This document shows, in pieces, positions 14,240 to 63,742 of a stretch of 64,000 nucleotides of DNA (the stretch's first letter is position 1; each line of letters starts with the position of its first letter). Source of the stretch: a virus (taxonomy: Duplodnaviria; Caudoviricetes). The stretch lies in IMG/VR virus record IMGVR_UViG_2855946969_000005, positions 35,286-99,285 of that record; one strand, 5' to 3'. Position numbers and translations under genes: made by a program. Under the pieces are notes generated by a model. The model did not search any database, was not told where the DNA came from, and was given only the letters and a program-made list of their open reading frames with translations.

Positions 14240-14806
14240 ATGTGGAGAAGTCATGCGTTATGGACACGATCTGTTCCGCACCTGCAACACAGTGATGCGC
14301 CGATGCTCGACAGCAGCTCCAGCCGGTTCGACTTCTCCGAGCCGTACGCACCCACCTCGTCCGAGGACGAGACCCGCTCCGATTACTCGGCGGCGATCTC
14401 GCGCGCTGCGCCGGCTCTCCCCGCCTCGCTGGATCCAGAGGCGATCAGCGCGGCGCTGTCGGCAGCGTTCGCGGCAGGGGTGCGGGCAGCGGCCGAGCGG
14501 GCGGCCTCTCGTCAGAAGGTCCGGGGCGACCAGCCGAAGTACCAGATCATCGCCGACCTCCTGCAGCGTGAGCAGGGCTGCATGGCCTGGGAGATCCGGG
14601 AGGCGACGGGCTGGACGACGTTCTCGATCCCCCGCTGGGCGGAGGCCGCCGGTCTCGTGCTGCACAAGGTCCGGATCGCCGGGAACACCTTCCGGTTCTT
14701 CGGCATCCCACGGGAGATGGCCGAGACCATGGACTATGAGGTGATCGGGCCGCCGAAGGACATGCGGATCGTGTTCCGGCCGAAGGCGGTGCGGTTGCAG
14801 GCCTAG
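14240..14806 (+). CDS. Hypothetical protein with DUF3489-like winged helix
   Basis: KYQIIADLLQREQGC..WEIREATGW; opposite strand to its neighbours; start uncertain. Confidence 0.55.
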   Translation: MWRSHALWTRSVPHLQHSDAPMLDSSSSRFDFSEPYAPTSSEDETRSDYSAAISRAAPALPASLDPEAISAALSAAFAAGVRAAAERAASRQKVRGDQPKYQIIADLLQREQGCMAWEIREATGWTTFSIPRWAEAAGLVLHKVRIAGNTFRFFGIPREMAETMDYEVIGPPKDMRIVFRPKAVRLQA

Positions 14807-15558
14807 GCCGCGAGCGCCAGAAGAGGCTCGGGCTCGGCCTGGGCGAGACGCCGCGCCGCGATGGCGTGGTGCGCCGGCGCCTTCTCGATCAGGATCGAGC
14901 GGCGACCGAGGGCGCGGCAGGCAATACCGGTGGTGCCGGTCCCCGCGCAGGAATCCAAGACGAGATCGCCGGGGCGGGTATAGGTCGCCACGAGGTAGCG
15001 CATCAGCTCCTCGGGTTTTTGGCTGGATAGTAGCCGCCCTTCCGCGCCGCGCCGATCCGCCTTGATGGTGATCAGGTCGCGGGGATAGCGCAGGCCGTCC
15101 GAGCAGTCGGTCGTGGCGGGACGCTGGAACTTGTAGACGTTGCCGTCCGCCTTCGTCGCCTTCCGGTACGGCTCACCCTGAACCATCTGCGGGTTGTAGG
15201 TGTGCGGGCCCGGCGCGAAGACGAGGACGTCCTCCGTCACGCGCAGCGGCTGGCGCTTCGCGTTGAGGTGCCCCGACATCCGGTTCACCTTGTCCCAGGT
15301 CCAGCGGTAGCGGAACCAGTCGAGGTTCGAGACCGTGAGGAGGGCCGAGAACACGCCCGAGGCGGTGAGCACCACCACCCCGTTCGGCGCCAGCACGTGG
15401 CGGTAGGCCGCCCAGAGCGCGTCGAAGGGGATGATCTGGTCCCAGGCGCACCGCGTGGACCCGTAGGGCAGATCGGCGATGATCGCGTCGACCGAGCCGG
15501 CGGGCAGGGTCGGGATCACCGAGAGGCAGTCGCCCAGGATCAGGGTTGGGTCCGGCAT
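14803..15558 (-). CDS. DNA N6-adenine/N4-cytosine methyltransferase (beta class), orphan
   Basis: Start reassigned to MPDPTLILGDCL; catalytic DLPY, QKP, LVLDSCAGTGTT SAM motif. Confidence 0.9.
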   Translation of the reverse strand: MPDPTLILGDCLSVIPTLPAGSVDAIIADLPYGSTRCAWDQIIPFDALWAAYRHVLAPNGVVVLTASGVFSALLTVSNLDWFRYRWTWDKVNRMSGHLNAKRQPLRVTEDVLVFAPGPHTYNPQMVQGEPYRKATKADGNVYKFQRPATTDCSDGLRYPRDLITIKADRRGAEGRLLSSQKPEELMRYLVATYTRPGDLVLDSCAGTGTTGIACRALGRRSILIEKAPAHHAIAARRLAQAEPEPLLALAA

Positions 15559-15569
15559 GCGGGCTCGCG

Positions 15570-15647
15570 TCAGCGGCCCAGCGGCCGGTCGGTGTCGATG
15601 AGGACAGTCTGGCCGGTGATCGGGTTGAGGATGGCGATCTTCGCCAT
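15570..15647 (-). CDS. Small ORF MAKIAILNPITGQTVLIDTDRPLGR
   Basis: 25 aa; fills the gap in a tightly packed operon. Confidence 0.4.
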   Translation of the reverse strand: MAKIAILNPITGQTVLIDTDRPLGR

Positions 15648-15650
15648 GGC

Positions 15651-15896
15651 TCAACGCTTCCGGTAGCGGCCAGCAGCGTTGCGCGCTGGCGGCGCGTAGG
15701 CGCAGCCGGACGGCGGCAGTTCGCGGCACGGCATGACGAGCACCCAGATCAGTCCGGCGACGAGCCCGGCAGCGAGGACCGCGAAGAGGTCCGGGTGTGT
15801 GAGGAGCGCGTCGCGCGCCGCCTCGCGGAGGCCAGGGCCGATTGCGGCGCCCAAGCTGCCCGCAAGGGTCGCGGCGAGAACGGAACGGAGCATCAT
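15651..15896 (-). CDS. Small membrane protein
   Basis: Two hydrophobic stretches. Confidence 0.5.
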   Translation of the reverse strand: MMLRSVLAATLAGSLGAAIGPGLREAARDALLTHPDLFAVLAAGLVAGLIWVLVMPCRELPPSGCAYAPPARNAAGRYRKR

Positions 15897-16047
15897 GGCC
15901 TCTCGGGATCGGCGGCGGGCGCCGGCTCCTCCGGCCAGGGTGCGCGGTAGGGTTCAAGCCAGCCCGTCGACCAAGCGGCGATGCCGACGGCGTAGGACAG
16001 CCAGAGCTCCACCATGCGGTCGATGAGATCGGGGCGTGGGCCGAGCG

Positions 16048-18835: not shown

Positions 18836-19096
18836 CTATGCCGCGAGCGCGAGGCCGCGGAGTGGTTCGAACTCCATCACCGGGAGAACGATGGTGGCCA
18901 CCTCCCCGCGCGGCGGCGGGTTCTTCTGTATAGCGTCGAGCGCCGCCTTGATCGACGCGATCTCGCCGGGGCCCGTGCCGACTCTGTAGAGGGTCGGACC
19001 GGTCCAGACCTGAGGCCGGATCACCGGAAGCCCGACAGCCGCCGCGCCCGCGGTTGCGAACACGCTTCCGAGGAAGGATCGGCGGCTCAGGCGCAT
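18836..19096 (-). CDS. Small Tat-signal protein
   Basis: MRLSRRSFLGSVFATAGAAAVG twin-arginine motif; GGAG RBS. Confidence 0.6.
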   Translation of the reverse strand: MRLSRRSFLGSVFATAGAAAVGLPVIRPQVWTGPTLYRVGTGPGEIASIKAALDAIQKNPPPRGEVATIVLPVMEFEPLRGLALAA

Positions 19097-19118
19097 CGGG
19101 CTCGTCTCCACATGGCCA

Positions 19119-19290
19119 GAGCAGCAGGGGGCGAAGGCGGACCGGGCCTGCAAGGAACCCGGCAATTCGGTCCGCACCTTTCTCGACAGATCTCGGCGCA
19201 TCCTACGGCCTGCAGATTGGGCGCAGGTCTATGCACGCCCTCAGGGCCGAAGCCCTTTCACCGTGTCGCCGCCTTCGACCACTACTGCTC
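19119..19290 (-). ncRNA. tRNA-shaped structured RNA, copy A (expanded)
   Basis: Long terminal stem GAGCAGTAGTGGTCGAAGGCGG/CCGCCTTCGCCCCCTGCTGCTC; UUCG hairpin inside the D-like loop; T-like arm GCCGGG...CCCGGT; 5' end homologous to copy B. Confidence 0.6.
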
Positions 19291-19296
19291 AGGGGC

Positions 19297-19326
19297 GAAC
19301 GTTACCAGAACGTCCGATCTCCGCAA
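19297..19326 (-). promoter_or_regulatory. sigma70 promoter overlapped by a LexA (SOS) box
   Basis: TTGCGG-16-TAACGT with extended TG; perfect GAAC-N7-GAAC at 19297-19311 covering the -10. Confidence 0.65.
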
Positions 19327-19487: not shown

Positions 19488-20354
19488 TCAGAGGATCGGG
19501 GCGTGCGTGCCGTCTTGCAGGACGTGCGTCGTCGCGCCGTTCCACTGGAACAGGTATTCGAGCGCGCCGCGGTACTTCTGATTGTCCACGATGTAGGAGA
19601 TGCCGGACGGATGCCAGATGCCGCCGTTCGGTGCCGGGATCCCCTCCCCGTTCAACTCTGCGCAGATCGAGCGAAGTGTGCGCTTCTCGCGCTTCACCGC
19701 CTTGTAGATCCGCTTCACGACTTTAGCCTGCTCGGGCACGACGACCAACTGGCGTTGGCCTTTGTCGCCGCCCTCGACCCGGTAGCCGTAGGGCGCCCTC
19801 CCCCCGGCGAAGCCGCCGCGGCCGGCCTTGTTCATCCGGCCGCCGGCTGTGCGATCCCGGATCGTGTAGCGCTCGTTCTCCGCCATGCCGGCGAAGATCG
19901 CGAAGAAGGTTCGGCCCATTGGGCTCGACGTGTCGATCACTGACTCGGTCACGGACCGGAACGCCACCTCGTGCTGCTCGGCCAGATCCGAGACCGTCGT
20001 GATCGCGTAGCGGATGTCGCGCGCCAGACGGTCGATCTTGTAGACGAGCAGGATCGAGAATGCCCGCGCCTCTGCCAACTCCATCACCCGGGCGAAGCCG
20101 GGGCGATCCGCCGGGCGTGTCGCACCGGAGAACCCGGGGTCGGTGATCGCCTCGACCACCTCGTAGCCCTGGCTCTCAGCGAAGGCGTGAACCGCGCGCT
20201 GCTGCGTCTCGAGGCCGGTGCCGCTGTTGGCCTGCTCATCGGTCGAAACGCGGAAGTAGGCGACGACCTTGGTGCGCTCGGCCGCCTTCTGGCTAGCTCG
20301 GACTTCCGTCCTAGCCTTGATCCGGGCTACCCGTTTGCTGCCAAAAGCGCCCAA
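19488..20354 (-). CDS. Serine recombinase (resolvase plus recombinase domain, no Zn ribbon)
   Basis: YFRVSTDEQ, DPGFSGA...RPG, VYKIDRLAR, ERYTIRDRT..GR, GGRAPYGY. Confidence 0.9.
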   Translation of the reverse strand: MGAFGSKRVARIKARTEVRASQKAAERTKVVAYFRVSTDEQANSGTGLETQQRAVHAFAESQGYEVVEAITDPGFSGATRPADRPGFARVMELAEARAFSILLVYKIDRLARDIRYAITTVSDLAEQHEVAFRSVTESVIDTSSPMGRTFFAIFAGMAENERYTIRDRTAGGRMNKAGRGGFAGGRAPYGYRVEGGDKGQRQLVVVPEQAKVVKRIYKAVKREKRTLRSICAELNGEGIPAPNGGIWHPSGISYIVDNQKYRGALEYLFQWNGATTHVLQDGTHAPIL

Positions 20355-20516
20355 AACGCTAACCCTACCAGAGCGTTAAGACCCCTAGGAAGCCGCTTTG
20401 TCCAAACTCTCACAAGAATTCGAACACGGCGATGCTTCGGGGTAGGGACGGCTGGTTAACAGATGGTTTACGCTGCGTCTCTGGCCGCGCTTGCGGGCCG
20501 CCCTGGGAGCCAATCG

Positions 20517-21232
20517 TGTCGCGCCTGAAGCTCTATCGCGCCATCGGTGTGAAGCCCGTCGCCTCGCCGATCACGGCGATCCGCGCCGAACTCCGGAGGT
20601 ACGACCGCAAGCGGACGTGCCGAGCCCGCGCGATCCTCATACCCGTCACAGAGCCCCGGGGGCCCGGCTCGGGGGCGCACGCCGGACGCCACATGCAGCT
20701 GAAGCTCAGCGCCCAAGCCTTCCTGAGAGGGCAGGGGAAGCTCGACGTCACCCTGGAGCAGGACGACCGAGGCCGCGTCTATGACGTCGCAGCCACGTGC
20801 GAGCGGGTGGCGGTCGAGGTCGGCCAGACCCAGGTGTCGAAGCTACTCAGCATCGCCCAGGATGGCGTGCTTGCCATCTGGCTCCCGTACCGCCCCGAAG
20901 GCGACTATCAGGTCGGCGATCTCGCTCAGGCCGTGGCGCTGACAAGCCCGCGCGTCCGAGCGACCAAGAAAAACACTCCAGGGGCGATTGCCGTTCACAT
21001 CGAGCAGAGGCGCACCCTTGCAAGGGCGTACGCTGTCATACTGGAGACCAATTCTGTGGACGCCTACCTAGCTGAGCTGAATTTGTTCAAGAAGCCCCGA
21101 CTCCGAGAGCATGAAGAGTTCGCAACGAACTGCCTCAAACTGCCGGAACCCATTCCCGACGACGAGCCAGAGGTCCAACGAGAAATCGAAGTCGACTGGG
21201 CGGGCCTAAAGAAGGCCTTCCCCTTCATGTGA
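20517..21232 (+). CDS. Hypothetical protein, possible PD-(D/E)XK-like nuclease
   Basis: H..LK...YDVAA....VAVEVG pattern; start uncertain (20432, 20517 or 20693). Confidence 0.45.
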
Positions 21233-21241
21233 GGGTCCGAC

Positions 21242-21662
21242 CTACGCCGCGCTCGCCAGCCCGATCGTCCCCGCGATCCGCCGATGCGGCGCCCGGACCT
21301 CGGCCTTGGCCACGTGCCCCGCCCGCTTCGGCCCGAAGTTGGCGAACACGTCCTGCGCGCGGAAGGTCCCGCGCTCGGCCGGGTCGTCGCGGCGCGCCAC
21401 CTCGTTCGCCCGGCGTCGCATGGCGCGGGCGAGATCGAGCTTGGCGTGGACGGGCTCGGCTGGGTCCGTGTTGCTGGCGAGGGCGAGCGCCTCGACCTGG
21501 TCGGCGAAAGCGCGGAGCTCGGCGACGTAGTCGAAGCGGCGCTTCAGGGGAGGGGCCACGTGCGGGCTCCGGTTTCCAGTGACAAAGGCGTTGGCAAGGC
21601 CGGACCCCAACTCGGCTATCGCACCCGCCCTTCGCCGATGCGAGTAGCGGGGTTTGATCATG
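21242..21662 (-). CDS. Hypothetical protein
   Basis: Helical protein-like C-terminal part RFDYVAELRAFADQVE; start uncertain. Confidence 0.4.
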
Positions 21663-21880
21663 CGGAGAGACGCGCGAGATCCGCCGGGGCCTGAGGGCTC
21701 GCCGGGGCGCATCATCATCCGCCAAGGTACTGAGGGTGCGTTTACAGACTTCTTGCCAAGATGGACGCGCAGTTCGCGCGAATAGCATGCGGCACCGAAC
21801 GACGCCTCGCCAGTGCTAAACTCGACTGCTTTGGAGGGGAGCAGAGCCCAGCAGCCCGCGCCAGCGAAGTACGCTAGACG

Positions 21881-21916
21881 CACAAAAGGCCCCCGCGTTT
21901 CCTTGGGAGCCCTTGT
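21881..21916 (-). terminator. Rho-independent terminator of a short minus-strand transcript
   Basis: AAGGGCTCCC...GGGGCC-TTTTG; TTGACC about 45 nt upstream of the stem. Confidence 0.5.
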
Positions 21917-22031
21917 TGAGCCGCTATGGAAACGTGTGTGCCAAATTCCAAGCCCGAGGTCAACAGCCATGGCGGGCCGCCATCGCGGCCGGCGCGCCCG
22001 CGAGAAAGAGGAGAAGACCGCGCCTGAGTGG

Positions 22032-22063
22032 TTGATATCAGCCCAGGAGAACGTACTATGAAC
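22032..22063 (+). promoter_or_regulatory. tnpB promoter with LexA box; leaderless transcript
   Basis: TTGATA-16-TACTAT; perfect GAAC-N7-GAAC at 22049-22063; GTG start 6 nt after the -10. Confidence 0.7.
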
Positions 22064-22065
22064 GC

Positions 22066-23205
22066 GTGAGCATCGTTTGTGCGCATCAATATCGGATCTA
22101 CCCGACGAAAGAGCAGGCCGACCTGCTCACGAGAACGTTCGGGTGTGCCCGCCTTGTATACAACATGGCTCTTGAGCATTGGCGAGATGCTCATAAGGCG
22201 GAGCAGCGACTTATCCCCTTCCGCGAGCTAAGTGCGATGTTGCCGACGTGGAAAGGCAAGCTGCCGTTCCTCAAAGAGGTATCGTCGGTCCCATTGCAGC
22301 AGGCAATTCGCCATCTAAATGAAGCCATAGGCAATTTCTTCCAGAAGCGAGGCAAATACCCTTCTTTCAAGAGCAAAAGCGGTCATCAGTCTGCGACATT
22401 CATGCGGAACGCGTTCAAGATTGCCGATGGCGATTTGACGCTTGCGAAGATGCCCCACCCGCTGCGCGTTGTTTGGAGCCGCCCACTTCTGGGGCACCCG
22501 TCGACCGTGACGATCACGAAAGATCCTGCAGGAAGGTGGTTCGCTTCACTACAATTTGAGTGCGCCCATAAAGTCGTTCCTGCGCCGAGCAATGCCGCAA
22601 TTGGTGTCGATGTCGGGCTTATTGATATTGCTGTGACGAGTTGCGGCAAGCGGTATAAGGCCCCGCGGTATCTCAGTCAGCGGCTGCATTCGCTTAAAAG
22701 GGCCCAGCGTGCTCTAGCAAGAAAAAAGAACGGCAGCAGAAATCGGGAAAAAGCAAAGCAGCGCGTCGCACGGCTGCATTCCAAGGTGGCTGACCAAAGG
22801 AGAGATTTTACCCATAAGCTTTCGACTAACCTGATCCGCGATAACCAAGCGATCTATGTAGAGGATTTGGACGTTGGCCCGTTGGGTAGAACGTTCCTGG
22901 CTCGCGCAATCTATGATGCAGGCTGGGGCATGCTCAGGCGGCAGCTAAAGTACAAAGCCTCTTGGTACGGCAGGTCTCTGATAAAGGTCCCGAAGCATTA
23001 CCCTAGCACTAGGAAGTGCTCCAACTGCGGCATCATTGGCCAGAAGAAACCCTTGCCCGTTCGGACTTGGACATGCCATGGCTGCGGCGCAGAGCATGAT
23101 CGGGATATGAATGCTGCAATAAATATTTTGGCCGCGGGGCACGCGGTGTCTGCCTGTGGAGAAGTCTTAAGTCCTGTTCCAGAAATGGATAGGCAGCCTT
23201 CGTGA
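22066..23205 (+). CDS. tnpB: TnpB RNA-guided nuclease (IS200/IS605 type, no tnpA)
   Basis: YRIYPTKEQ...FGCARLVYN; RuvC-I GVDVG, RuvC-II VEDL, CxxC/CxxC, RuvC-III HDRD.NAA.NI. All three acidic residues are present. Confidence 0.95.
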   Translation: MSIVCAHQYRIYPTKEQADLLTRTFGCARLVYNMALEHWRDAHKAEQRLIPFRELSAMLPTWKGKLPFLKEVSSVPLQQAIRHLNEAIGNFFQKRGKYPSFKSKSGHQSATFMRNAFKIADGDLTLAKMPHPLRVVWSRPLLGHPSTVTITKDPAGRWFASLQFECAHKVVPAPSNAAIGVDVGLIDIAVTSCGKRYKAPRYLSQRLHSLKRAQRALARKKNGSRNREKAKQRVARLHSKVADQRRDFTHKLSTNLIRDNQAIYVEDLDVGPLGRTFLARAIYDAGWGMLRRQLKYKASWYGRSLIKVPKHYPSTRKCSNCGIIGQKKPLPVRTWTCHGCGAEHDRDMNAAINILAAGHAVSACGEVLSPVPEMDRQPS

Positions 23206-23289
23206 AGCAGGAACCTGTGAAGCAATTCATAGGATCGCATGGGCGATTCAGCCCTTGAGAACATGCCAAGGGCGTCTCGTGAGTCTTGC
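23131..23289 (+). ncRNA. TnpB omegaRNA/reRNA scaffold plus putative guide
   Basis: GCCGCGGGGCACGCGGT..GCCTGTGGA...GAAGCAGGAA scaffold typical of IS605 right ends; GGGC-GATTCA-GCCC hairpin; ends ATGCCAA at 23269 (canonical ATGTCAA); guide about 23270-23289. Confidence 0.65.
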
Positions 23290-23291
23290 CC

Positions 23292-23390
23292 CTACAAATA
23301 CAAGGACCCAATCCATCTTACCGTCCCGTAAGCCGCCGCCGCGAAGGCGTAGGGCAGGCAGTCGATCCAGCATTTGAGGGGGACGGTCAC
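23292..23390 (-). CDS. Small hydrophobic protein
   Basis: MTVPLKCWIDCLPYAFAAAAYGTVRWIGSLYL; GTGA overlap with the upstream gene. Confidence 0.35.
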   Translation of the reverse strand: MTVPLKCWIDCLPYAFAAAAYGTVRWIGSLYL

Positions 23391-23764
23391 GTCGGCGCGT
23401 GCTCGCTGATCTTCACGTCGAGCGCCGCAAAGCGCCCGAGTTCGCCGAACACCCGCACCTTGATCGCCTCGCGCGGGCCCGGCGCCATGACACCGAGGGA
23501 GAGAGGCGAAAGGAACTGGTAGTCCCAGCGCGGATCCTCGTGGACGCTCGCGCTCGCGCAGCCGACGAAGGTGGAGCCGGACCAGATCTCGACCCGGCCG
23601 GGATCGGCCGCGGGATCGATCTGGATCGGGAATCGGCCGGTGAAGCCGATGCGGACGAAGAAGGTGGCTGCCGGACGTGGCGGGGCTGCGGCCGCGCGGG
23701 CGAGCGCCGGTGCGGCGAGCGCGCCGGCACCGAGACCAAGGAGGGCGCGACGGGCGAGGATCAC
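23387..23764 (-). CDS. Tat-signal secreted protein
   Basis: ARRALLGLGAGALAAPALARA. Confidence 0.6.
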   Translation of the reverse strand: MILARRALLGLGAGALAAPALARAAAAPPRPAATFFVRIGFTGRFPIQIDPAADPGRVEIWSGSTFVGCASASVHEDPRWDYQFLSPLSLGVMAPGPREAIKVRVFGELGRFAALDVKISEHAPT

Positions 23765-24024
23765 GCCCGCCCTCCCCCGAGCGCCGGGCGCAGGGCTTCG
23801 GGCCGCAGTGGGACCTCAGCCGCGATGCGGGCCAGGATGTCGGGGTGCGCGTGGATCGCGTCACCGAAGACGATCACTTGGGGGCTCGCCCGCTGCACGG
23901 GACGGATGCGCTGGGGATGACCCTGCCGCCGACGGCGCGACGCGCGAGAGGGCGAGCGCACCTCGGACCAGTCCTCCGCGGTCTCGGTGAGGAACGGGGA
24001 CGGCATGAGGCGCATGCCGAACAT
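23761..24024 (-). CDS. Hypothetical protein
   Basis: EDWSEVRSPSRASRRRRQGHPQRI motif; coupled at both ends. Confidence 0.55.
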   Translation of the reverse strand: MFGMRLMPSPFLTETAEDWSEVRSPSRASRRRRQGHPQRIRPVQRASPQVIVFGDAIHAHPDILARIAAEVPLRPEALRPALGGGRA

Positions 24025-24956
24025 CAGGCGGCCGCCGCGTAGACAGCCGGATCAATGTGCCGGACCGGCTCCGGCGTGCGCTTGCGCGGCGGCAGGGTGG
24101 CGACCTTCGCGGGGGCGAGATCGTCGTTCATCGGTACGAGGCTCGGGCGCACGGTGGCGGGCTCGGTCGGGCCCGAGAGCCAGGGCGCGGCCGGCGCGCG
24201 GGGCGGCGTCACCTTGAGCGAGGTGAGGTGGCCGAGCCGGTCCGCGAGGTAGCAGAGCGCGGCGTGCTCGGTGGCGTAGCGGGCGCGGTCCTCGGCGACG
24301 TCGTTGTGATCGCGTCCCCAGACCAGGCGGCAGTAGAGGCCGGCGTCGCGGGCATCGCCCTTGGACGCGGCGCGCTGCGGCGCGGTGAGGAAGAGGGGAT
24401 GCCCCTGCGCATCCACGCCGGCCGGCGTCGAGACCATGCGCCAGAGCACGACCTTGCCGTTGGGGCCGATCTCCTGTTCGCAGTGGACGGTCTCGTCCAA
24501 GCTCGGGCGCTTGCCCTTTACGGCATGTGTGATGAGCCAGCCGCAGGCCTCGAGCACCGCGTTGTAGGCGATCTGGTTGGCCCGGGTTTCCCGGCCGAGC
24601 CGGTAGCCGATCCGGTAGCCGTCGAGGTTGAGCGGGAGCGGCTCCCGCGCCTCGGCCGCCCGCTTGATCGCGGCGTCGAGCGCCAGGATCTCCGCCTCGA
24701 TCAGGAGCGCGTCGGGATGGGGGTCGCCCATGGCGAGCGGCATGCCGGGCTCGCGAGACCAGCAATCGATGCGACCGCCGAAGATCCCGCCCCGCCACAT
24801 CGGGTGCATGGAGGCGGTGGGCGGGGCCTTGATCGGCTGATCGCGGCGGCGCTTGGGCAACTCGTCCCGGAGGCACCACCGCAGGACTTCCTCCACCGGC
24901 AGCGCACGGCGCGCCCGGCCCTCAGCGGTGAAGGTGTTCGGCGCCGACGTGAGCAT
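24024..24956 (-). CDS. Conserved prophage protein, candidate late regulator/antiterminator
   Basis: VEEVLRWCLRDELPK...PHPDALLIEA; sits at the early/late junction. Function is inferred from position only. Confidence 0.5.
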   Translation of the reverse strand: MLTSAPNTFTAEGRARRALPVEEVLRWCLRDELPKRRRDQPIKAPPTASMHPMWRGGIFGGRIDCWSREPGMPLAMGDPHPDALLIEAEILALDAAIKRAAEAREPLPLNLDGYRIGYRLGRETRANQIAYNAVLEACGWLITHAVKGKRPSLDETVHCEQEIGPNGKVVLWRMVSTPAGVDAQGHPLFLTAPQRAASKGDARDAGLYCRLVWGRDHNDVAEDRARYATEHAALCYLADRLGHLTSLKVTPPRAPAAPWLSGPTEPATVRPSLVPMNDDLAPAKVATLPPRKRTPEPVRHIDPAVYAAAA

Positions 24957-32000: not shown

Positions 32001-33290
32001 CTAGAACGTGCCCGCCTCCAAATCGGCCTCCAAGGTTGATAGCGGCGCCCCGAGCCAGACCTTCTGCATGATCGGGACGCCCTTGCCGTAGCGGCCGATA
32101 TGCGCCCACTCGCCGAACTGCGCCTTCCCGAACTCGCCGTGTTTGAGGATGGCCTTCTTGCGCAGCACGTCGAAGGTATAGCCCGCCCCATTCACGTTCA
32201 TGCGGCGTATCAAACCGTTCAGGCGCTCGACGTAGCCGCTGGTGAAGCGGTGCTCGAAGTAGCGGAGGATGTGCGGGCGCCAGAGCTTGAAGGCGTCGAT
32301 GCTCGGCTTGAACGGCCGCTCGAACTCGGGCGGCACGCTGGCGAGCCACTGGTTCGTAGCATGCTCGGCGGCAGCGCGGCTCTCGGCCTCGTAGATGTCG
32401 TAGAACCGCTCCTTCAGATCGTAAGCGGTCGCCAGCACCGGGTAGAGGCCGAAGAGCCTGCTGAGGGTGGTTTGCGTCTCGGGCTTGCAGGTGTCCCATC
32501 GCGCGAGGAAGACTGCGCGGCGGCGCTTCAAGGCGATCCGGTCCTTGTTGGACAGGTCGCGGTAGAGAGCCTTGCGGACCACCTCCATACCGTAGTTCGC
32601 CGTCCGCTGGACGTGGTACTTGTCCACCACCGTGACGGCTTTAGGGAAGACAGCCTGCGTCAGCTTCCGGTAGCCGGACCACATGTCCTGACAGACGATC
32701 TCGACCTCTTCACGGCCCGCCATCATATGGAAGTAGTCGCGCAGATCGACCTCTCGCCGGGAGGGCTGCATGTCGATCATCAGTCCCCGCTCCACGTCAC
32801 CGATGACGAAGCGGGCCCGGCGATGCAGGTAGATCTCATCCATGCCGAGGACGCGCGGCAGCTTCGGGATGTACCCCTTCAGCATGCGGTCGCTGTAGTC
32901 ATCAAACAGACGGCGGATCAGCGTCTCGTGGACGCCGTTGACCTTTGCGGCGGTTGTGAACGAGTGCTCTACGGCCTGCCGCTCAAGGTGCTTCTTGAAC
33001 CGCAGCGTGATCCGCCGCTCGGTGTCGATGTCCGGTAGCTCCTCGTAGCTGATCTTGTGGCACTTATTGCAGCGGTAGCGCTGCCGGGAGACCTCAAGCC
33101 AGACAGGCTGGCCTTGGATGGCGTGGTCCCTGAAGCGAACGGCCTTCGTGCCGTTCTTGCTCTTGTCGTTCCAGAGGCAGCACCCAAACGGCAGCAGGGG
33201 CTTCTTGCTCGCCGCTCGCACGATGAGGAACCCACCCTCCTCATACGTGTCTACTGCCGCCAGATTGGGAAGGCGCAACAGGTCCGTCAC
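32001..33290 (-). CDS. ISL3 family transposase
   Basis: RQRYRC..C, LGMDE, VCQDM, VDKYHV, TSGYVERLN..IR. Confidence 0.93.
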   Translation of the reverse strand: MTDLLRLPNLAAVDTYEEGGFLIVRAASKKPLLPFGCCLWNDKSKNGTKAVRFRDHAIQGQPVWLEVSRQRYRCNKCHKISYEELPDIDTERRITLRFKKHLERQAVEHSFTTAAKVNGVHETLIRRLFDDYSDRMLKGYIPKLPRVLGMDEIYLHRRARFVIGDVERGLMIDMQPSRREVDLRDYFHMMAGREEVEIVCQDMWSGYRKLTQAVFPKAVTVVDKYHVQRTANYGMEVVRKALYRDLSNKDRIALKRRRAVFLARWDTCKPETQTTLSRLFGLYPVLATAYDLKERFYDIYEAESRAAAEHATNQWLASVPPEFERPFKPSIDAFKLWRPHILRYFEHRFTSGYVERLNGLIRRMNVNGAGYTFDVLRKKAILKHGEFGKAQFGEWAHIGRYGKGVPIMQKVWLGAPLSTLEADLEAGTF

Positions 33291-45509: not shown

Positions 45510-46151
45510 GGGCGTCTTCTCCTCCACCGAGAGCGGCACGTCCTTGGCGGACCGGGGAAAGGCTTCCTGTCGCGGGGTGGGCGCCGTACCTCTCGATGCA
45601 TGGTGGCGAGCGAGAGCAGCGGGCGCGGCGGCGCGGACGAGCAGGGCAAGGCCCGTGGGATGAAGGGGCGTGCCCCGGCCCGCCTGCGGAACGCCCAGTT
45701 CCAACGCGGCGAGACAGGACACGCCCGCACCGTGCCCGCCACGCCCAAGGCAAGCGCTCAGGCGGACGCGGTGACCGCCGGGAAGGCGGATCGGGGAGAG
45801 GGTTGCCGGGCTTTCTCGGCCCACGCCCGGCATGCGGGTTCCGCTCAGGGAGGCCGGGTCATTCCGGCTTTGGCCCTGGTCGAGGTCGTGCGCCGCGAGG
45901 GGCGCGTCTTGGTGCTCAGGGGAATCCCAAAGGGCGGGCGGAGCATTGAGGCCCCGCCCGAAGTCTCGGGAGAGAACGCCCTGGCGGGCAACGTCGACGC
46001 CGGCAACGGCATCGTTCTGGTGCAGGGCCGGCGTCATGCCGCCCTCGCTGTCGCTACGCCGGAAGAGACCCGGCGATGATCCTGATGGCGAACGGGCGCG
46101 CGGCGGGACCGCGCTACGCTCAGGGCTCCGTTGCGGGAGCCCAGCCGAGCC

Positions 46152-61505: not shown

Positions 61506-62735
61506 ATGAACCAGCACGTCCCCGTGGAAGGCGCCGACGCGCACTCCAACCAGATCGCGGCGGCCCATGCCCGGCTGCTCGGCGGCAAGCTGCAGGATCT
61601 CGCGGCCGGGTTCTACCCGCCTACCGCGGAAAAGACCCTGCGGCGATTCTCGGCCGGCGAGACGGCGCGCCTGCTCGGCATCACCGAGGTGCGGCTGCGG
61701 CAGCTCCCCTTCGACCGGCTGACCCCTGATCTCGAGATCGGGCCGGCCGGGCGCCGCTACTTCACCCTCGCCGAGATCCACGCGGTCCGCCGCCATCTCC
61801 ACGAGATCGACCGGGTGGGGCGGGGCTACCTCCCCCACCGCGACGCGGACAAGGGCGAGCACCTGCAGGTCATCGCGCTCACGAACTTCAAGGGCGGCTC
61901 GGCCAAGACCACGCACACGGCCGGGCTCGCCCACTACCTCGCGCTTCATGGCTACCGAGTGCTGGCGATCGACGCCGACCCACAGGCCTCGCTCTCGACC
62001 CTACTCGGTGTCCGGCCCGACGACAGCGGCCCGACCATCTACGACGCGGTGCGCTACGGCGAGGGCCAGCGCCCGATGCGGGAGGTGATCCGGCCGACCT
62101 ACTTCGCCGGGCTCGACCTCGCCTCGGCGAACCTCGAGCTTGAGGAGTTCGAGTTCTACGCGCCTCTGATGTCGAGCCCGGACCGGCGCCGGTCGGCGGG
62201 GGCGCCCTTCTTCGCCCGGCTCCCCGTGGCGATCGAGAGCGTCGCGGCCGACTACGACGTGGTGGTGATCGATTGCCCGCCGCGGCTGGGCTACTTCGCC
62301 ATCTCGGCCCTCTGCGCGGCCACCGCCACCCTGATCACCGTCCACCCGCAGATGATCGACCTCGCGTCGATGCGGCAGTTCCTCACGATGATGAGCGACC
62401 TGATGGAGACGGTGCAGGAGGAGGGCGCCCCGCCGCCGGCCCAGGACTGGTTCCGCTACCTCGTCACCCGCTACGACCCGCAGAGCGTGCCGCAGACCTC
62501 GGTGGTCGGCATGCTGCAGGATCTGTTCGGCAGCTACGTCCTCCCGAGGGCGATGCTGCAGACCCCGGCCGTCTCGACCTCGGGCTTGGTCGGGCAGACG
62601 ATCTACGAGACCCCGCTCGGCAAGGACCGCAGCGACGAGGTGAGCCGAGCCACGTACCGCCGCGCGCTCGACGCCTTGGACGATGTGAACCGTGAGATCG
62701 AGACCCTGATCCGCCGTGCCTGGGGTCGGGCATGA
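61506..62735 (+). CDS. repA: Plasmid partition ATPase RepA
   Basis: EKTLRRF, NFKGGSAKTT, IDADPQAS, DCPP, TVHPQM.D, LIRRAWGR. Confidence 0.95.
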   Translation: MNQHVPVEGADAHSNQIAAAHARLLGGKLQDLAAGFYPPTAEKTLRRFSAGETARLLGITEVRLRQLPFDRLTPDLEIGPAGRRYFTLAEIHAVRRHLHEIDRVGRGYLPHRDADKGEHLQVIALTNFKGGSAKTTHTAGLAHYLALHGYRVLAIDADPQASLSTLLGVRPDDSGPTIYDAVRYGEGQRPMREVIRPTYFAGLDLASANLELEEFEFYAPLMSSPDRRRSAGAPFFARLPVAIESVAADYDVVVIDCPPRLGYFAISALCAATATLITVHPQMIDLASMRQFLTMMSDLMETVQEEGAPPPAQDWFRYLVTRYDPQSVPQTSVVGMLQDLFGSYVLPRAMLQTPAVSTSGLVGQTIYETPLGKDRSDEVSRATYRRALDALDDVNREIETLIRRAWGRA

Positions 62736-63742
62736 GCAAGAGCATTCGGGATCTGATGTCCCGCCGCGTGGCTGAGCCCGCAACGGACAGCCCGCCCTCA
62801 ACGGGATCAACGACTTCACCCCCCTTACCAGGTGGTAATTCGCCCTCCCCTCGCCGCACCGGTGCAGCCCGCTCGTTCGGCGCCGCGTGGCAGGCGCAGG
62901 AACAGGCTCGGGCCGTAGCCGACGCCGAGCGCGACGGCAGCGTGGTCGAGCTCGATCCGGAGATCTGCGATCCTTCAGCTATCGCGGACCGGGTGCCCGA
63001 CACCACGGACGCCGCCTTCGACGCTTTCGTGGAGCAGATCCGGGAGGAGGGCCAGCGCAGTCCGGCCCTGGTGCGGCCGAAACCCGGCGAGCCCGGGCGC
63101 TACGAAATCGCCTATGGGCGTCGGCGGCGCCGGGCCGCGCAGATCCTCGGCCGGCCGCTGCGCGCCATCGTGCGCCCGCTCAGCGACACGGAGCTCGTTA
63201 TCGCGCAGGGATCGGAGAACCTCGCCCGCGCCGACCTCAGCTACATCGAGCGCGCGCACTTCGCGCGGAACATGGTCCAGGCCGGCGTGGCGCGCGAGAC
63301 GATCGCGAAGGCAATGGGCACGCAGGCGACCCACCTCTCCAGCTTGCTCACGGTCGCCGACGCGATCCCCGCCCCCGTGCTCGCCACCATCGGCCCGGCA
63401 CCGAAGATCGGCCGGCCGAACTGGCTCACGCTCGCCGACCGGATCAAGACCGCGAGCCCAGAGCAGATCGACACCGCCATCGCCTCCCCCGACCTCGCCG
63501 GCAAAGCATCGGACGAGCGGTTCGCCGTGGTGTTGGCCGCGCTCACCGTGGTGCCGAAGCCAAAGGCGAAGCCGAGAGCCGAGACGCTGAAGGACCCCAA
63601 GGGCCGGAAGTACGCGCGCGTCGAGCGCAGCGCGACCGGCCTCCGCGTGACGGTTGAGGAGGCTGCCGAGCCCGGCTTCGGCGACTACCTCGCCCAGCGC
63701 ATCCCCGAGATCCTGGCCGCCTACCGGGCGAGCAAGGGCTAA
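62732..63742 (+). CDS. repB: Plasmid partition protein RepB (ParB family)
   Basis: GQ..P.LVRP, YEIAYGRRR, AQG.EN.AR.DLSYIERA.FA, IGPAPKIGRP.W. Confidence 0.95.
   Translation: MSKSIRDLMSRRVAEPATDSPPSTGSTTSPPLPGGNSPSPRRTGAARSFGAAWQAQEQARAVADAERDGSVVELDPEICDPSAIADRVPDTTDAAFDAFVEQIREEGQRSPALVRPKPGEPGRYEIAYGRRRRRAAQILGRPLRAIVRPLSDTELVIAQGSENLARADLSYIERAHFARNMVQAGVARETIAKAMGTQATHLSSLLTVADAIPAPVLATIGPAPKIGRPNWLTLADRIKTASPEQIDTAIASPDLAGKASDERFAVVLAALTVVPKPKAKPRAETLKDPKGRKYARVERSATGLRVTVEEAAEPGFGDYLAQRIPEILAAYRASKG

Follow-up and report, generated by a model that had tools for sequence, protein, structure and literature searches.

The tnpB gene at positions 22066–23205 (plus strand) of the 64-kb stretch of viral DNA analysed here (the window; bases 35286–99285 of a 99 285-base IMG/VR virus record, linear and ~90% complete) encodes a TnpB of 379 residues, an RNA-guided endonuclease of the IS200/IS605 family of insertion sequences (IS). 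We favour, with a probability of roughly 65%, the reading that this is an ordinary, solitary, non-autonomous tnpB-only element of the family in a variable segment of a temperate phage-plasmid. The left part of such an element would be a short region with the family's own promoter, whose −10 box lies 6 nt ahead of the start codon, its middle part the intact tnpB and its right part an omegaRNA scaffold that overlaps the 3′ end of tnpB and finishes at 23269; the next 16–20 nt, as flanking DNA, would serve as the guide by default. The TnpB–omegaRNA complex would still be made, and its sole programmed target would be a copy of the locus freed of the element, with the transposon-adjacent motif (TAM) plus GGGCGTC.... 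Selfish retention is the usual role of TnpB, and TnpB-bearing IS200/IS605 elements belong to the most common mobile genes and are frequent in phages. The element is probably stuck in place, because the record encodes no TnpA and no recognizable family-type left end or TAM is found. There is no evidence here of a new, DNA-damage-timed use of TnpB. The value of the comparison with relatives is mostly negative: the combination of SOS box, leaderless start and retargeted guide, proposed from the letters of this DNA before any database search (the sequence-only reading), dissolves against the relatives because the layout of promoter and start is inherited and the guide is the flank.

The TnpB protein

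The assignment of TnpB to its family is based on Pfam, NCBIfam and structure alignment. The open reading frame (ORF), which begins with GTG, contains in order a helix–turn–helix (HTH) domain (PF12323, HTH_OrfB_IS605; 63.7 bits), an OrfB_IS605 (RuvC) domain (PF01385; 96.3 bits) and a zinc-ribbon TNB domain (PF07282, Cas12f1-like_TNB; 87.3 bits), all above cut-off. The NCBIfam model guided_TnpB is matched with 323.9 bits (cut-off 100), and the narrower IS200_TnpB model gives 354.9 bits, under its cut-off of 425. Residues 8–358 align with the solved ISDra2 TnpB (8bf8/8exa; E = 5e-66), with the GVDVG, VED and HDRD motifs and both CxxC pairs present. In the alignment to ISDra2 chain 8bf8_A the RuvC triad (D182, E266 and D347) and the zinc finger (C318/C321/C337/C340) are intact, which bears out the sequence-only reading that the catalytic site of this TnpB is complete, RuvC acidic residues and Zn finger included. 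Domain order and RuvC and zinc-finger motifs are those of the ISDra2 TnpB of Deinococcus radiodurans (8bf8, 8ex9, 8exa and 8h1j). Cas12f and its relatives have the RuvC and zinc-ribbon core in common with the protein, and the NCBIfam models Cas12f2 (46.8 bits; cut-off 450) and C2c8 (115.6 bits; cut-off 350) both score far under their cut-offs. No CRISPR repeat array lies within 20500–24800 and no cas genes lie nearby; since there is no array, the protein is not a CRISPR effector.

In the public gene call (P0001) the protein has 322 residues; with a start 57 residues downstream of the GTG it lacks the HTH, which Pfam places at residues 6–47. The GTG start brings the HTH back and agrees with the N-termini of relatives. 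Below, the relatives are the best 80 of 580 confirmed metagenomic loci, 44–53% identical. Between the upstream stop (22033–22035) and the GTG there is no in-frame start, and the sole Shine–Dalgarno-like sequence, AGGAGA, lies 16 nt upstream of the GTG.

It is unlikely, in our judgement, that the locus is a dead relic, severed from its left end and drifting, with TnpB and omegaRNA inactive and the frame simply not yet hit. Such a relic would accord with the protein's retention of 120 of the 132 columns that show at least 95% conservation among 119 homologues, which themselves retain 98.8% on average. However, the 12 altered columns are mostly conservative changes (F/I, L/I, I/V, S/T and E/D), and the baseline overstates normal conservation because it is dominated by mutually close actinomycete sequences. 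The frame moreover runs for 379 codons without a stop or frameshift and keeps every catalytic and zinc residue. A C-terminal frameshift was considered as a sign of decay, the stop falling inside the conserved GAAGCAGGAA stretch (KQE in relatives), and was rejected because the position of the stop differs by 3 to 150 nt among the relatives, several of which also stop early, before the KQE-coding stretch.

The omegaRNA, right end and guide

The predicted omegaRNA scaffold extends from 23127 to 23269 (plus strand), shares 79 nt with the 3′ end of tnpB and stops at the right end, ...ATGCCAA. A covariance model (R1, from alignment A2) was built from 47 relatives with the window excluded. On the 64-kb window it gives this match only (68.1 bits, E = 1.4e-19, full model length); on held-out relatives it matches 32 of 32 with 41.6–143 bits, a series in which the window score would rank 30th of 33. 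When 64 relatives are anchored on HDRD, the DNA 3′ of tnpB is conserved up to ...GGGGAGGATGTCAA and diverges completely beyond it. The omegaRNA and the right end share a terminal hairpin at 23240–23262 (plus strand), which is the right copy of an end repeat (see below); its stem, CATGGGC/GCCCTTG, has one mismatch. The putative guide segment (23270–23289, plus strand) is the DNA that adjoins the right end; it begins with GGGCGTC and is taken to be 16–20 nt long, its position following from R1 and the relatives. Scaffold, right end (23269) and guide start (23270) are placed as in the sequence-only reading, because the match of the relatives-only model ends there; that reading had described an omegaRNA scaffold of the gene's own with an imperfect terminal hairpin and an ATGCCAA end followed by a guide. 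The arrangement is like that of ISDra2, where the 3′ end of tnpB likewise encodes a guide RNA that stops at the right end and takes the flank as guide. No Rfam family was matched at the tnpB locus.

Several traits of the RNA would again suit a relic. Its score is low for the family, two of the five pairs of the terminal hairpin are non-standard, the middle stem is shortened and the scaffold ends in GCCAA instead of the GTCAA of 58 of the 64 relatives; one relative, L014, likewise ends in GCCAA.

The 3′ arm of the hairpin, GCCCTTG, also pairs perfectly with CAAGGGC, which straddles the junction of right end (three bases) and guide (four bases; 23251–23273 with the arm). Folded as DNA, this alternative has an energy of −11.7 kcal/mol (z −3.87). 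Such pairing would be in competition with the canonical hairpin and would sequester the first bases of the guide.

The first 16 nt of the guide match nothing else in the 99-kb record at up to three mismatches. The viral collection (2.9 million contigs) contains five exact matches, none of which extends and whose 5′ sides are unrelated; these are chance-like. The proposal that the guide was retargeted to a competitor or host locus is not borne out, the guide being the right-end flank and neither the record nor the viral collection holding a meaningful target. Accordingly little credence, the least of any reading considered here, goes to a domesticated phage weapon or regulator, in which an active TnpB would have its guide set against a competitor or host locus, as in phage TldR. 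The gene is phage-borne, in a single intact copy without tnpA and with its own predicted promoter, and phage-encoded TnpB derivatives with host targets are on record (excerpt of PMC10705468). In the same excerpt TldR proteins are characterized by RuvC-inactivating mutations (two or more changes of DED) or C-terminal truncation and by linkage to non-transposon genes such as fliC or oppF. The window protein resembles them as a member of the TnpB family that a temperate phage carries, its guide RNA being encoded downstream, but its DED triad and zinc finger are intact; since RuvC is intact it is not a TldR, and no partner gene of a known family (fliC/oppF type) adjoins it. The guide moreover occupies just the place that the flank has in an ordinary insertion, the composition of the block is unameliorated, and the closest relative seen (sequencing run X6, below) lacks the element, whose place is a variable segment and not a conserved module.

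Promoter, start codon and LexA-type motif

A σ70-type promoter-like site precedes tnpB at 22032–22059 (plus strand). It consists of TTGATA (22032–22037) and TACTAT (22054–22059) with a spacing of 16 nt, and 6 nt separate the −10 box from the GTG. With a score of 9/12 it is the sole such site in 21500–23800, where 0.5 are expected. The promoter-like site and the closely spaced GTG described in the sequence-only reading are thus present, but they are not special to this copy: 63 of 78 relatives have a −10-like TAnnnT hexamer that ends 4–9 nt (mostly 6–7) before an in-frame start (5.6% of 1560 shuffles), and 27 of the 78 have this hexamer together with a −35 hexamer of at least four matches in six (0.5% of 1560 shuffles). 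Because the −10 box at this distance is so widely carried, the layout is, as judged by sequence comparison, inherited and a trait of the IS clade, not a local invention. It suggests that tnpB of this clade is transcribed as a leaderless or near-leaderless mRNA from a promoter inside the left end, and the clade-wide −10 box 6–7 nt before the start is worth keeping for that reason. A full-text literature search, judged by title and start of the abstract, returned nothing on leaderless tnpB expression.

In relatives L013–L092 the −10 hexamer often lies within an inverted repeat (TTTACA ... TGTAAA/TGTGAA), with TTGAC preceding.

The −10 box is overlapped by GAAC-N7-GAAC at 22049–22063 (plus strand), which matches the consensus of the alphaproteobacterial LexA operator, GTTC-N7-GTTC (equivalent to GAAC-N7-GAAC; excerpts of PMC9578287, PMC3091678 and PMC12700426). 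The sequence-only reading saw a perfect LexA box here and a nuclease timed to DNA damage or prophage induction. The box does sit across the −10 hexamer; its significance does not hold, since the window contains three such sites where chance alone would give 1.46, and a count of three is reached in 19 of 100 shuffles. Conservation across homologues, which had been proposed as a check, is not found either: the motif occurs near the start in one of 78 relatives, a weak test as the relatives are mostly from other phyla. With an inherited promoter layout, a motif at chance level and a single relative that bears it, the timing to damage is unsupported. The motif is, from its sequence, most likely a by-product of the element end, because one of its halves is part of the ...GAGAAC that comes after the hairpin at each end.

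We doubt that the motif functions as a LexA box. If it did, host LexA bound over the −10 box would silence tnpB until damage, with expression on SOS or prophage induction, whether the element is selfish or co-opted. Such gating is favoured by a site that agrees in full with the alphaproteobacterial consensus, has an AT-rich spacer and covers the −10 box, by a host that is probably an alphaproteobacterium and by the S24-peptidase repressor, from which the phage itself is probably damage-inducible; transposition of ISDra2 also increases after irradiation (excerpt of PMC2806898). Apart from its chance frequency and near-absence from relatives, however, the motif was picked after the fact, shares a half-site with both element ends and follows an alphaproteobacterial consensus that may not equal the LexA motif of the host, and the literature search, judged as above, has no LexA control of tnpB among the matches listed. 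More improbable still is a specific history in which a deletion fused the left-end hairpin to the start-proximal promoter and thereby produced a LexA operator that covers the −10 box, so that active nuclease would be made only upon SOS or prophage induction. If true, this would be the first LexA-gated TnpB and would tie RNA-guided transposon nucleases to the damage response.

Another GAAC-N7-GAAC is found at 19297–19311, in the intergenic region between a serine recombinase gene (19488–20354, minus strand) and the ORF at 18836–19201 (minus strand).

Left end, mobility and genomic setting

The left end of the relatives is composed of the flank, T[C/T]ATC, ~15 nt, a hairpin like that of the right end, a variable stretch, the promoter and the start. 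The T[C/T]ATC junction is common to near-identical relatives with differing flanks and guides (for example L069/L071 and L033/L042/L047). The covariance model of the left end also matches right ends of relatives, so the two hairpins of one element are alike. Within the 150 nt upstream of the window tnpB, the best likeness of the right-end hairpin region (23240–23262) is the left copy of the end repeat at 22029–22052 (plus strand), with 19 of 24 columns matching. Its score is equalled by 25 of 2000 shuffles and by six of 1946 random pieces of the window, and its fold is weak (z 0.04). By its sequence, this copy is probably a remnant or compact form of the left-end hairpin; it lies 14 nt from the start, compared with about 40–100 nt for the hairpin in the relatives inspected.

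ISDra2 carries tnpA and inserts 3′ of TTGAT (excerpt of PMC2806898), whereas the record of the window is without tnpA. The only TTGAT here (22032–22036) falls within both the end repeat and the −35 hexamer. It was rejected as an ISDra2-type TAM, being 29 nt before the start with no space for a left-end hairpin, and the clade relatives have T[C/T]ATC at the left junction instead. In tnpB-only members of the IS200/IS605 family, which we take to be the IS1341 group of ISfinder, tnpB stands alone between left and right end. The window copy is similar, with a right end and omegaRNA as in the 64 relatives and a promoter before the start as in 63 of 78, but with no family-type left end or TAM detected, an absence that would also be expected of a relic; it further differs in being a single copy whose best kin has 59% identity. 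The sequence-only reading had itself allowed for a compact IS1341-type element whose left end doubles as the promoter, and this caveat survives in part: the end repeat agrees with it, but no family-type left end or TAM was detected. The TnpB–omegaRNA pair is divergent (at most 59% identical to anything known) and its left region unusually short, which may make it of interest for compact TnpB collections.

A Y1 transposase was sought with Pfam PF01797 (Y1_Tnp), which matches nowhere in the 99 285-base record at E ≤ 10 and is positive in ten of 14 control genomes. The absence of tnpA from the window, noted in the sequence-only reading, thus extends to the entire record; the search covers this 99-kb record, and TnpA might act in trans from the host chromosome. 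The nearby serine recombinase was rejected as an IS607 transposase (41.6 bits; cut-off 110) and is a phage-type enzyme instead. The suspicion that it is truncated was also dismissed, as the open frames of its relatives are 298–322 residues long. The record contains one copy of the element, and no further copy was found in the genome, viral, phage or plasmid collections; the many near-identical copies at unrelated loci by which the sequence-only reading would have recognized an ordinary mobile IS are therefore not seen in any collection searched. A viral scan with the closest protein (P0002) gave relatives of 37–51% identity only.

Several observations weigh against an ordinary tnpB-only element. 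No second copy, empty site or TAM that would prove it an IS was found. A profile hidden Markov model and a covariance model of the family left end match nothing upstream of tnpB, at a sensitivity of just 35/75 (leave-one-out) and 17/36 (held-out). T[C/T]ATC is absent from the expected place left of tnpB, and no TAM-like motif lies near the shift in composition at ~22000. The nearest protein among 5.8 billion is only 59% identical and the closest relative loci fetched only 44–53%. A lone copy with a long intact frame of 379 codons and its catalytic residues is compatible with selection for function. Finally, the by-product view does not predict a perfect consensus match exactly over the −10 box, the consensus being alphaproteobacterial and the host's own motif possibly different, and GAAC occurs between the −10 box and the start in just four of 63 relatives. 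A family-conserved spacer as the source of the second GAAC, which we also considered, gains weak support from this count.

The element lies in a variable cargo segment (21573–23335), outside the conserved phage backbone. This placement rests on the related prophage of run X6 (an isolate, depth ~17), which has other DNA here, and on shifts in G+C content and in G+C at third codon positions (GC3) at the same borders. X6 matches 20500–21572 without differences and 23336–24800 with 26 differences, all of them in 23336–23770 and none in the other listed pieces; they fall on third codon positions of the gene at 23387–23764. Its contigs pass into unlike DNA at 21572 and at 23336, so the 1.76-kb segment was replaced in X6 and not simply deleted. 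The ORF at 21242–21970 (minus strand) is chimeric, with a GC3 of 0.95 in the part common with X6 and 0.64 in the remainder. The G+C content of 22000–23269 is 53.9% versus 68.7% for the window, and the GC3 of the tnpB block is 0.60 versus 0.8–0.96 in phage genes; the composition of the block is foreign and unameliorated, and it was probably acquired horizontally. Minus-strand genes (23387–23764 and 24024–24956) flank the plus-strand tnpB, and the description of a gene antisense to the phage operon and AT-richer than its flanks (54% versus ~69% G+C) was correct.

Comparison with related prophages for an empty site, another check proposed with the sequence-only reading, found none; X6 bears other DNA. 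No contig joint that skips the element was found in four sequencing runs. Through the neighbour at 24024–24956 only related phages of 30–44% identity and different gene order were reached, with no empty site, and the neighbours at 20432–21232 and 23387–23764 have no viral relatives among those searched. The element and its left flank occur at full identity in two metagenome studies, one of which is possibly the source sample. Among the runs listed for the locus, none is recorded as RNA.

In runs X1 and X3, both of one study, contigs leave tnpB at 22728, at the end of an A-rich run, and continue for 80–294 nt in unlike sequence. They may represent a variant in which tnpB is interrupted or rearranged; for the relic reading, they would hint at a disrupted variant in that population. 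Unitigs end at 23268 (X2) and near 21914–21920 (X1 and X3), possible branch points at low coverage.

The window encodes a portal protein, a terminase, a DnaB helicase, an S24-peptidase repressor and an ISL3 transposase. Partition genes of repABC type (RepA/RepB) lie at 61506–63742. RepA has 88% identity to a protein of a Roseococcus metagenome-assembled genome that likewise bears the name RepA, with Methylobacterium proteins next, and RepB scores above the TIGR03454 cut-off. Because RepA/RepB genes share the record with the portal, terminase and S24 repressor, the record looks like a temperate phage-plasmid of an alphaproteobacterium. The assignment of the host, probably an alphaproteobacterium, is based on the similarity of RepA and a match to an RNA of the mmgR family; the RepA similarity suggests a Roseococcus-like bacterium of the Acetobacteraceae.

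The latter match, to the mmgR/suhB small-RNA family (Rfam RF00519), is at 45921–45996 (minus strand), scores 46.6 bits against a gathering score of 41 and adjoins the S24 repressor region. The ISL3-family transposase (32001–33290, minus strand) is complete, with zinc-ribbon, HTH and DDE domains, and marks a second IS in the record. The phage also carries a gene for an N6/N4 DNA methyltransferase at 14803–15957 (minus strand).

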